Shown piece by piece: positions 21,512 through 63,108 of a stretch of 64,000 bases of DNA (the stretch's first letter is position 1; the number at the start of each line of letters is the position of its first letter). The position numbers and the translations under genes were made by a program. The notes under the pieces are model-generated. The model was not told where the DNA came from. It was given only the letters and a program-made list of their open reading frames with translations, and made no database searches. Source of the DNA: Octopus vulgaris (Eukaryota); assembly GCA_951406725.2 (NCBI GenBank), contig OX597833.1, positions 53,072,001 through 53,136,000 of the forward strand, written 5' to 3'.

Positions 21512-23258
21512 ATAACTGTTTAGATTTATGTTTAAACGCTTCTAAACACATAAATAATTACTTCTACGCTCATTAGTTTGACCATTAGCCATTCAGTAGT
21601 AAAATAACTGTTTAGATTTATGTTTAAACGCTTCTAAACACATAAATAATTACTTCTACGGTCATTAGTTTGACCATTAGCCATTCAGTAGTAAAATAAC
21701 TGTTTAGATTTATGTTTAAACGATTCTAAACACATAAATAATTACTTCTACGGTCATTAGTTTGACCATTAACCATTCAGTAGTAAAATAACTGTTTAGA
21801 TTTATGTTTAAACGCTTCTAAACACATAAATAATTACTTCTATGGTCATTAGTTTGACCATTAGCCATTCAGTAGTAAAATAACTGTTTAGATTTATGTT
21901 TAAACGCTTCTAAACACATAAATAATTACTTCTACGGTCATTAGTTTGACCATTAACCATTCAGTAGTAAAATAACTGTTTAGATTTATGTTTAAACGCT
22001 TCTAAACACATAAATAATTACTTCTACGGTCATTAGTTTGACCATTAACCATTCAGTAGTAAAATAACTGTTTAGATTTATGTTTAAACGATTCTAAACA
22101 CATAAATAATTACTTCTACGGTCATTAGTTTGACCATTAGCCATTCAGTAGTAAAATAACTGTCTAGATTTATGTTTAAACGCTTCTAAACACATAAATA
22201 ATTACTTCTACGGTCATTAGTTTGACCATTAGCCATTCAGTAGTAAAATAACTGTTTAGATTTATGTTTAAACGATTCTAAACACATAAATAATTACTTC
22301 TACGGTCATTAGTTTGACCATTAACCATTCAGTAGTAAAATAACTGTTTAGATTTATGTTTAAACGCTTCTAAACACATAAATAATTACTTCTATGGTCA
22401 TTAGTTTGACCATTAGCCATTCAGTAGTAAAATAACTGTTTAGATTTATGTTTAAACGCTTCTAAACACATAAATAATTACTTCTACGGTCATTAGTTTG
22501 ACCATTAACCATTCAGTAGTAAAATAACTGTTTAGATTTATGTTTAAACGCTTCTAAACACATAAATAATTACTTCTACGGTCATTAGTTTGACCATTAA
22601 CCATTCAGTAGTAAAATAACTGTTTAGATTTATGTTTAAACGATTCTAAACACATAAATAATTACTTCTACGGTCATTAGTTTGACCATTAGCCATTCAG
22701 TAGTAAAATAACTGTTTAGATTTATGTTTAAACGCTTCTAAACACATAAATAATTACTTCTACGGTCATTAGTTTGACCATTAGCCATTCAGTAGTAAAA
22801 TAACTGTTTAGATTTATGTTTAAACGCTTCTAAACACATAAATAGTTACTTCTACGGTCATTAGTTTGACCATTAGCCATTCAGTAGTAAAATAACTGTT
22901 TAGATTTATGTTTAAACGCTTCTAAACACATAAATAATTACTTCTACGGTCATTAGTTTGACCATTAGCCATTCAGTAGTTAAATTACTGTTTAGATTTA
23001 TGTTTAAACGCTTCTAAACACATAAATAGTTACTTCTACGGTCATTAGTTTGACCATTAGCCATTCAGTAGTAAAATAACTGTTTAGATTTATGTTTAAA
23101 CGCTTCTAAACACATAAATAATTACTTCTACGGTCATTAGTTTGACCATTAGCCATTCAGTAGTTAAATTACTGTTTAGATTTATGTTTAAACGCTTCTA
23201 AACACATAAATAGTTACTTCTACGGTCATTAGTTTGACCATTAGCCATTCAGTAGTAG
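21512..23258. repeat. Tandem satellite, 19 x 92 bp, near-identical units
   Basis: Units start at 21513+92k up to 23169; consensus TAACTGTTTAGATTTATGTTTAAACGCTTCTAAACACATAAATAATTACTTCTACGGTCATTAGTTTGACCATTAGCCATTCAGTAGTAAAA. Confidence 0.97.
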
Positions 23259-60490: not shown

Positions 60491-61110
60491 AAGGCGGCGA
60501 GTTGGCAAGAAACGTTAGCACGCCGGGCGAGATACGTAGCCGTATTTCGTCTGCCGTTACGTTCTGAGTTCAAATTCCGCCGAGGTCGACTTTGCCTTTC
60601 ATCCTTTCGGGGTCGATAAATTAAGTACCAGCTACGCACTGGGGTCGATGTAATCGGCTTAATCCGTTTGTCTGTCCTTGTTTGTCCCCTCTGTGTTTAG
60701 CCCCTTGTGGGTAGTAAAGAAATAGGTATTTCATCTGCCGCTACGTTCTGAGTTCAAATTCCGCCGAGGTCGACTTTGCCTTTCATCCTTTCGGGGTCGA
60801 TAAATTAATTACCAGTTACGCACTGGGATCGATGTAATCGACTTAATGTCTTTGTCTGTCCTTGTTTGTCCCCTCTATGTTTAGCCCCTTGTAGGCAATA
60901 CAGAAATAAGAAACGTTAGCACGCTGGGGAAATTCTTAGCGGTATTTCGTCTGTCTTTACGTTCTGAGTTCAAATTCCGCCGAGGTTGACTTTACCTTTC
61001 ATCCTTTCTGAGTCGATAAATTAAGTACCAGTTGCATACTGGAGTCGATGGAATCGACTGGCTTCCTCCCCCAAAATTGTGGGCCTTGCGCCTAGAGTAT
61101 GAAAGAATAT
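60491..61110 (+). mobile_element. SINE family A trimer
   Basis: Head followed by three tandem body units; the last has an alternative tail. Confidence 0.9.
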
Positions 61111-61480
61111 TGCGAATGTCTAATTCTAAGTGAGCACTTTTTCCTAGGGTGTATGCATAGTGGTTCGTATATGAATGCGGATTACAATGGTTCGATCATA
61201 TATATGTTCTTTTTTATGCTTTGGTTGTTTTAGTCAGATCACTCAGCTGTAGAAATGAGTCGCAGTGTTACTGGTGCCAAGCAGTCGAACGTATCGACCC
61301 CAGGAATGATTTTTTTTTAAAGCATGTTACTTATTCTGTCGGTCTCATTTGCCCAGCCACTAAGTTACAGGGACGTAAACACACCAGCACCGGTTGTCAA
61401 GCGGTTGGTGTGGAACAAACTCTGACGCAAAGACACACAAGCACACACACGCATATATACATACATACACATAAACACAA

Positions 61481-61548
<68 letters not shown>

Positions 61549-62183
61549 TTTTAAAAAAGTTTTTTAGCTGCTATTTCTAATGAGTTCAGTATGCGGCAAA
61601 GTAATTTATTTTACTAAGCCCTTTTATATATTGTAATAATTTGAATTCGCCTTAAATGGTCCCTTTGCATACTGAACACTTGGTGAAATTAATTAATAAT
61701 TAATTAATTTTACCCTCAATTGTTGAAATTATAATTAATCTCCCTCTAATTAATGCTTCGGATTTTACCGAAATAAGCAGAGTGTTTGTTGATTTTAACC
61801 CACGCTGGTGGAAAGGGGAGAGCAGAAATTCTTCGCTTGCATGTTTGAGTTTGTTGGCACTGTTAGTTACGAGCAGAACTTCGAAAGCGATGAGAGGCCG
61901 AAAGAGTATGCTCTCACTTTCAGTGTTTTCAAATCCAAACCAAGGAGTTTCTGAGCTGATGATAGAAGTGTTGTGATGACTAATCTTGAAACGTACGTTC
62001 TCAAATAACCTTTGCATTTGATTTTTTGATGTCCTTACCCCCAAACTTTCGTGAGTTGAGTTGACCAAACACTATATGAGAGATTTTCTTTAAGTATTAG
62101 AAATGGTTTTTAAAAAAGTTTTTTAGCTGCTATTTCTAATGAGTTCAGTATGCGGCAAAGTAATTTATTTTACTAAGCCCTTT

Positions 62184-62191
<8 letters not shown>
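61549..62191 (+). mobile_element. Retrozyme-like element: 559-bp monomer + 84-bp identical terminal direct repeat, inserted in the (TA)n of a SINE B
   Basis: 61549-61632 = 62108-62191; internal hammerhead; long G-U-containing stems; SINE B halves at ~61260-61547 and 62192-62367. Confidence 0.85.
61952..62003 (+). ncRNA. Type I hammerhead ribozyme
   Basis: TGAG-CTGATGA-[TAGAAGT...ACTAATCTT]-GAA-ACGTACGT-T-CTCA; predicted cleavage after 61999. Confidence 0.8.
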
Positions 62192-62244
<53 letters not shown>

Positions 62245-63108
62245 CAACGAGCTTCTTTCAGTTTCTTTCTACCAAATCTGCTCACAAGGCTTTGGTCGGC
62301 CCGATGCGAAGACACCCAGCCAATGTGCCAGTTGGACTAAACCTTGAACCTTACCACACAGCCATTCTGTAGCTTTTAATCCCAATGACAATATAACATA
62401 GCCACCAAGGGATCCCTTGGCCGTGTGTCGGCTTACCAACCCCACAAACACAGATCATTTCACGGTGTAAACTACCAATACCTCAGTAGACTATACGCTA
62501 AGTAGCACCCATTTTCGTATTTTAATACCGACCTTCTAACGATTCCGCCATAAAATTAGAAATGGCTCACGGAGAGACTTGACGAATATGTTACAATTAT
62601 TAAATAAGACATCACAGTTTTTGCCCTGTATTGTCTTACATTCACAACGCCCAACCAACTGAGTCATTTTCTGGAAATCTCGTACATCGACCAAGTTTAA
62701 CTAGTTAACAATGAATTATTTTGTTTTACTGATTTTCATCTTAAATTTAGTATTTATTAAAAGAATATTTGTTTTGTCTTTGCTTATACAGAAAACATGC
62801 TTTTCACACGTTTTTTTTGTTTTTCTTCTGCTTGCTTTAGTTTATTTCTAAATGGATTTTTTTGTTTAGGCAAAAACAAATTTTGTTGATATTTAACAAA
62901 ATCGTGTCAACAAGAACAATTTGAAATATGAAAAAAAAAAAAAAAAAAAAATAGATAACGCATTTTTGTTCTTTTTTTTTTTTCTTGAAGGAAAAAAATA
63001 ACAAGCAAACAAGCAAACAGACAAAATACTCTTATCGGAATTCATATTTTAAAGTTAGAAAAAGTATTTATAATTAAAAAATAACAAAACTATATTAATA
63101 TAACATAA

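Follow-up and report, generated by a model that had tools for sequence, protein, structure and literature searches.

Metazoan non-LTR retrozymes, as described from coral, mussel and axolotl (PMC7229834), are built of non-coding, low-GC tandem units that carry one type I hammerhead each and adopt a self-paired fold. The units studied in invertebrates measure about 170–400 nt, and RNA circles were shown for the invertebrate and axolotl elements in the same report. Vertebrate retrozymes, the consensus lengths of which range from 51 to 972 bp, occur as dispersed monomers to multimers together with Neptune/Poseidon elements, are tied to pLTRs by sequence and were proposed to be non-autonomous Penelope derivatives (Li, Clavereau, Pollet 2026, 10.64898/2026.07.22.740005). 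Insertions of the Penelope elements themselves are recognised by incomplete tandem copies, a copy in inverted orientation on the 5' side, a tail that only one end carries and a preference for (TA)n (Craig et al. 2021, 10.1101/2021.04.23.441226), and a purified Penelope protein was reported to cut and extend both DNA strands and to start inside the RNA at two sites, which delimit the tail (Frangieh et al. 2024, PMC11167929).

The 64,000-nt stretch of Octopus vulgaris DNA analysed here, which we call the window, contains at 61549–62194 an insertion with the non-coding low-GC tandem units, the single type I hammerhead per unit and the self-paired fold of the metazoan retrozymes. It is likely a new member of that class, for which a Penelope-type enzyme acting in trans would have used a ring or an uncut multimer as template. 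With 559 nt its unit is longer than those of the invertebrate elements, and it is known from genomic sequence alone, whereas RNA circles were shown for the retrozymes of PMC7229834. The sequence-only reading had considered it larger than the animal retrozymes, but within the vertebrate range its size is unexceptional. As in vertebrates, we found dispersed monomers to multimers and co-occurring Neptune-like elements, but here the tie to Penelope elements is the insertion footprint, and no homologous pLTR was found in 36 GIY-YIG loci. Inverted arms, two fixed ends and (TA)n targeting, all present in this family, are not described for the metazoan retrozymes in the parts of PMC7229834 consulted, and our literature search returned no cephalopod retrozyme and no two-armed retrozyme insertions, although the supplements of PMC7229834 and 10.64898/2026.07.22.740005 may list such. 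Plant LTR retrozymes and viroids are likewise long, highly self-paired non-coding hammerhead RNAs; the unit described here differs from them in having a type I and not a type III hammerhead, no LTR ends and one polarity only. The features of the locus are given below, with E1 and E2 denoting the two fixed 3' ends of the family.

61231–61548, strand unassigned: left half of a SINE-like host repeat, with the (CA)n(TA)n tract that is the target site
61549–62107, plus strand: one full 559-nt unit, the length predicted for the ring; the 5' start reflects truncation at a variable point and is no defined end
61570–61736, plus strand: four-hairpin junction domain, the most conserved part, holding E1 near 61630–61640 and E2 at 61733
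61781–62073, plus strand: long-range trunk helix of 61781–61818 with 62039–62073; 10 of 25 main-helix pairs change on both sides
61844–61939, plus strand: side-arm hairpin with a conserved basal helix and a variable tip; both partners have changed in 6 of 17 pairs, and 92% of cells are paired
61941–62014, plus strand: type I hammerhead with extended stem I, CUGAUGA, stem II, GAAA and a 2-bp palindromic stem III; predicted cut after U61999
61952–61955 with 62000–62003, plus strand: stem I, UGAG/CUCA, and CUGAUGA at 61956–61962, by inspection
61963 with 61987, plus strand: U.U, with GAAA at 61988–61991 and GUU at 61997–61999, by inspection
61991–61998, plus strand: self-complementary stem III segment ACGUACGU, which would form an 8-bp stem III in a hammerhead dimer
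62108–62194, plus strand: partial second unit (unit positions 1–87), which ends at the proximal fixed 3' end E1 and runs into (TA)n
62195–62370, strand unassigned: remainder of the (TA)n and right half of the SINE-like host repeat

The insertion is delimited by a direct repeat, 61549–61635 and 62108–62194, at a spacing of 559 nt, and the leading 84 nt of the two copies are identical. The 84-bp identical repeat around a 559-nt monomer, as the sequence-only reading had described it, is thus present, but it is not a terminal repeat; it is a partial tandem, the by-product of a random 5' end. The window copy is a one-armed E1 product, in which copying would have started at site 87 and stopped after 646 nt, hence the apparent terminal repeat. 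BLAST within the window identified the flanks of the insertion as the two halves of one dispersed SINE-like repeat, with 15 other matches in the window for the left flank and 16 for the right. Since other copies of this repeat hold a short microsatellite between their halves, with anything from a few nt to a few hundred separating these, the (TA)n is internal to the SINE. Flank matches and end sequences bear out the earlier description of an insertion in the (TA)n of a SINE without TG..CA ends: (TA)n borders it on both sides, and a target-site duplication is unreadable inside such a tract. Two further repeats were observed in the window, a 92-nt tandem repeat at 21512–23257 (19 copies, 97% matches) and, just upstream of the host SINE, a second interspersed repeat with three tandem-like 183-nt copies (60542–61124).

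The element is abundant in the genome. Exact matches numbered 1,109 for a hammerhead 19-mer of the window subfamily, 5,368 for a 22-mer of the conserved domain, and 825 and 135 for two sister 19-mers, while all reversed controls gave 0. The search of the species' own genome (2.8 Gb, 227 contigs), in which 40 of 1,448 candidate places were scored, returned at least 132 matches, the best of them 97–99% identical, in agreement with the earlier view of a young element and excluding a single-copy sequence. Tandem units, each with a type I hammerhead, were present at many loci. Besides intermediate subfamilies at 72–93% identity we detected a family B, met through a weak match in one flank, with units of about 593 nt that are 56–57% identical to the window unit, and a family C of 554 nt (54% identical). 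The GC content of the element is low (34%), and the longest ATG ORF of the unit encodes 37 aa on the plus strand and 105 aa on the minus strand; together with the finding that none of the 77 sampled arms has a coding body next to it, these values uphold the description of the element as non-coding. A more diverged two-armed hammerhead repeat, family D, with a similar series of hairpins before its 3' end, was seen at L167:1-1300, and several unrelated type I hammerhead families occur in the flanks of L015, L040, L043, L055, L056, L064 and L069, the genome being dense in them.

The hammerhead letters were found at the positions named in the sequence-only reading, and the type I core (CUGANGA, GAAA and NUH joined by stems I–III, with stem I open) is complete. 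Among 69 extracted copies, part of them from overlapping loci, one or two depart from this core and the others keep it, and scanning both strands of the loci gave no core on the minus strand of the unit. Rfam yielded 0 matches at the gathering score in the window and no ribozyme among the 21 matches at E<=10 in 61400–62400; the call therefore rests on inspection and on covariation in alignment A1, a set of 13 representative units from about five related lineages. In these 13 units stem I was paired in 100% of cells and the distal part of stem II in 98%, and in each of the two stems 3 of 4 pairs changed on both sides. Stem II is better drawn as AGA/UCU, a conserved 3x3 internal loop and then GUUG/UGAC (61970–61973 with 61977–61980). 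The C3–G8 pair is a tertiary Watson–Crick contact in hammerheads, and in family C it is replaced by U3–A8. Rescue of a C3G change by G8C has been reported (PMC11167929). The stem III segment was fully self-complementary in 12 of the 13 units, with lengths of 6, 8 or 10, and a palindromic stem III is expected of hammerheads that work as dimers (PMC4209133). As judged from the aligned copies, the hammerhead motif is under selection.

The sequence-only reading had raised the U-U at the base of stem II as a caveat. Position 10.1–11.1, usually G10.1–C11.1, is unpaired in 9 of the 13 units, being U.U in the window copy, so that the mismatch is a family trait, and it has an active precedent in the axolotl HHR_Amex2, which has the same U.U and the same 2-bp stem III and was reported to reach 22% cleavage in monomeric form and a far higher level when dimeric (PMC7229834). 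Two observations count against activity: the ring fold of minimum energy lacks the hammerhead, which can be imposed on it at a cost of 12 kcal/mol, and 8 of 9 Xenopus retrozyme dimers were reported to show no cleavage in vitro (10.64898/2026.07.22.740005). For an anole Penelope element, uncut RNA was described as the main substrate (PMC11167929). About 30 nt upstream of stem I a pyrimidine tract followed by AG (61911–61923), resembling a splice acceptor, is present in 13 of 13 units. It was rejected as an acceptor, as a joined form was found from none of 17 GT sites in 272 loci.

The whole unit folds well. Its folding energy was better than that of 100 of 100 shuffles on either strand (z of -4.5 on the plus strand and -3.9 on the minus strand), and for family B the values were -4.9 and -2.3. 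When five units representing families A, B and C were folded as circles, all took on a similar branched plan, with the plus strand better than the minus strand by 22–43 kcal/mol in raw energies. When the 150 pairs drawn on the window copy were followed through the 13 units, 84.7% of cells were paired, as compared with 79.6 ± 0.4% in 500 shuffles and 37–43% in slid controls, and 49 of the 150 pairs changed on both sides against 32.9 ± 3.1 in shuffles; these shuffle controls overstate the significance, because the 13 units are related and the structure was taken from the window copy. G-U replaced a Watson–Crick pair at 53 pairs and A-C at 30 (p = 0.015). Circular folding and covariation, which had been proposed as a check, thus agree with a self-paired fold of the plus strand as RNA. 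Of the individual stems named earlier, GUGUUUG.../...CAAACAC (79% of cells paired), GUUCAGUAUGC/GCAUACUGAAC (92%) and the extension of stem I (78%) held up, whereas UCAAAU/AUUUGA (31%) and GAGAGCA/UGCUCUC (62–72%) were together no better than shuffles. The four-hairpin domain is 71% identical to families B and C, in comparison with 48–54% elsewhere in the unit. This most conserved domain also holds both fixed ends, which suggests recognition by a reverse transcriptase, and 61570–61736 is likely the region of binding and initiation.

For the anatomy of the insertions, the 5,368 matches of the 22-mer were taken in genome order up to the 100th, and 49 regions were fetched for them, a cluster resembling a segmental duplication being passed over. 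Of the fetched loci, four and half of a fifth, all repeating one short insertion, and a 67% match to another family were left out, and the remaining sample comprised 48 insertions with 77 arms. Sense 3' ends fell at unit positions 79–98 (E1) or 175–189 (E2, mostly 185) and nearly always abutted (TA)n, giving fixed ends at about 87 and 185 that lie 98 nt apart, while the 5' ends were spread across the whole unit. Among 29 two-armed insertions, in which the divergent arms are joined 5' to 5', E1 was paired with E2 in 26, and 18 of 19 one-armed insertions ended at E1 or E2. Pairing of E1 with E2 was also seen in all 19 insertions that had both outer ends among 20 hand-picked long ones. Single insertions contain up to 9 or more tandem units, and family B has two 3' ends at sites homologous to E1 and E2. 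This Penelope-type anatomy (partial tandems, inverted arm, one-sided tail) is absent from the sequence-only reading. Partial tandems, an inverted 5' arm, a one-sided tail, the (TA)n bias, hammerheads with a palindromic stem III that act as dimers and two internal starts of reverse transcription are all shared with EN+ Penelope-like elements, as those are portrayed in 10.1101/2021.04.23.441226, PMC11167929 and PMC4209133 (Cervera and de la Pena 2014). The unit differs from them in having no ORF and a tail of 98 nt rather than 30–40 nt, and the start site nearly always differs between its two arms, whereas in vitro the two strands were reported not to differ in this respect (PMC11167929).

The predicted cut site was crossed by 40 of the 77 arms, and 17 of the 77 were longer than 600 nt. 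Since the arms read through this site, a cut linear monomer was not the usual template, which leaves a ring or an uncut multimer. No sharp pile-up of 5' ends was found at the site: BLAST ends lay at 451–454 in three of 77 arms (on inspection at 454, 454 and about 457), and of seven additional 5' ends in the interval from about 398 to 456, one fits the cut. All units of both arms of L257 share 14 differences from the window unit, with 1 variable position, and the opposite arms of L028 differ at 0 positions, whereas insertions differ from one another at 6–22 positions. Such uniformity within an insertion fits a ring copied round with occasional template switches, and equally the transcript of a homogeneous array. 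Mosaic units, observed in L253, L259 and L269, are not explained by one monomeric ring unless template switching or later conversion took place. The inner ends of 7 of the 29 two-armed insertions (L191, L209, L218, L227, L189, L216 and L224) lie within 12 nt of the same unit position, where about 1.3 would be expected, a hint of fold-back or of a common stop. One short two-armed insertion with an identical inner junction recurs at L193, L202, L208, L228 and L231, once as an inverted pair, and is seemingly carried along by another repeat.

An enzyme that could act on this target is encoded in the same genome. Of 6,136 candidates for GIY-YIG elements 150 were scored; these gave at least 148 matches and revealed a young coding family with many intact copies of a 781-aa RT and GIY-YIG ORF, in which a Cys-rich linker precedes the nuclease. 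A linker of this kind has been described for Neptune, Nematis and Naiad elements (10.1101/2021.04.23.441226), and by this linker and the C-terminal nuclease the element would be Neptune-like. Like the retrozyme family it has (TA)n flanks, and it shows two ends 40 nt apart in 30 of 32 end rows (4 of which are re-fetched places), with one end of each kind on opposite arms at two loci. One such copy, L091:430-5672 (G000:C16:20834929-20840171), combines an intact 781-aa ORF with 456-nt pLTRs of 99% identity; its two 3' ends are separated by 40 nt, and the pLTR contains a hammerhead-like motif with a U3–A8 core. The pLTR of the coding element showed no similarity to the 559-nt unit, and a profile of the conserved domain matched no pLTR in 36 GIY-YIG loci; the coding element is therefore a candidate helper and not a proven parent. 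An RT/GIY-YIG ORF between pLTRs, as an autonomous Penelope-like element would have, is absent from the sampled insertions of the unit family.

With considerable confidence we regard the window insertion as a young member of a non-coding tandem repeat family that is present in many copies and has a conserved type I hammerhead motif in every unit. It is probably a non-LTR retrozyme, for which a Penelope-like (Neptune-type) RT/GIY-YIG protein would act in trans and write the copies into (TA)n, with self-cleavage and a ring predicted. In such a cycle the arrays would be transcribed from the plus strand, two hammerheads would pair through their palindromic stems III and cut after GUH, and the 559-nt monomer would be ligated into a ring, the best fold of which would keep a lone hammerhead mostly off. 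The anatomy suggests that a Penelope protein may then bind the four-hairpin domain and cut (TA)n DNA, and that reverse transcription may begin inside the RNA at unit positions of about 87 and 185. The copies as observed end at these two sites on the 3' side and at variable positions on the 5' side; they contain tandem units and frequently a pair of divergent arms, each of which uses one of the two sites.

The same element and enzyme might instead work from a long linear multimer that is transcribed from genomic arrays and stays uncut, in which case the hammerhead would cut rarely or serve another step and the ring would be unneeded. We consider this unlikely, although the arms that cross the cut site, the mosaic units and the absence of the hammerhead from the best ring fold all speak for it, as do hammerhead mutants reported to have no effect on insertion by the anole Penelope protein in vitro (PMC11167929). 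Against it stand the conserved fold, which closes over one unit as a ring, and the accumulation of published retrozymes as circles (PMC7229834); the private differences that several insertions share across both arms point in the same direction but are not decisive, as a homogeneous source array would give the same.

Two other explanations were weighed. The sequence-only reading had itself noted that it might be simply the pLTR of a coding Penelope element, the copies being its 5'-truncated ends. The identical insertion anatomy and the reported resemblance of vertebrate retrozymes to pLTRs (10.64898/2026.07.22.740005) favour this, and a matching coding family could be missed with 150 of 6,136 GIY-YIG candidates scored, but all 77 arms stop at (TA)n, at flank DNA or at another arm, including arms of 3.3 and 5.3 kb that consist of units only. 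No coding body thus lies beside any of them. The tblastn matches present in 211 loci (121 + 90, some overlapping) belong to separate insertions, the short plus-strand ORF and the lack of a matching pLTR in the 36 loci argue the same way, and we judge this explanation improbable. Still more so, to the point of being hardly tenable, is spread by recombination as a DNA-level satellite or fold-back repeat with a vestigial hammerhead. Tandem arrays would agree with it, and so would the seven coinciding inner ends, as fold-back would give them, yet the short arrays are dispersed, with strand-specific fixed 3' ends and (TA)n targets, and the fold has compensatory changes and a G-U bias. Contigs of sequencing runs presumed to be RNA cover the unit but are uninformative on strand, level and circularity, and the summed depth of element over SINE, lower in two presumed-RNA runs than in two runs that also cover unique flank, is the basis for no conclusion.

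Returning to the retrozyme copied in trans, a more far-reaching version can be put forward tentatively, although we lean against it. The genome would bank RNA rings, the entire branched fold of 550–590 nt being selected across families down to 54% identity, and a dimer of the Penelope RT would dock on the one four-hairpin domain of a single ring, with one subunit at each of the start sites 98 nt apart, so that both arms would be written at once by rolling-circle copying. If this were true, the 559-nt ring would be a ready-made minimal substrate for studying how Penelope elements make tandem and inverted insertions.

The retrozyme class itself is already known; what the locus adds is that covariation supports a whole ring fold and that the most conserved domain of this fold contains the two start sites. 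The re-entry of retrozymes into genomes and the origin of the tandem, inverted and tailed insertions of Penelope elements are both stated as open questions in 10.64898/2026.07.22.740005, 10.1101/2021.04.23.441226 and PMC11167929. In the octopus family recent insertions number in the thousands, and their two fixed start sites nearly always occur as a pair. Because the paired start sites and the covariation-supported RNA domain are found in the same genome as an intact candidate enzyme, the mechanism is directly testable in vitro.
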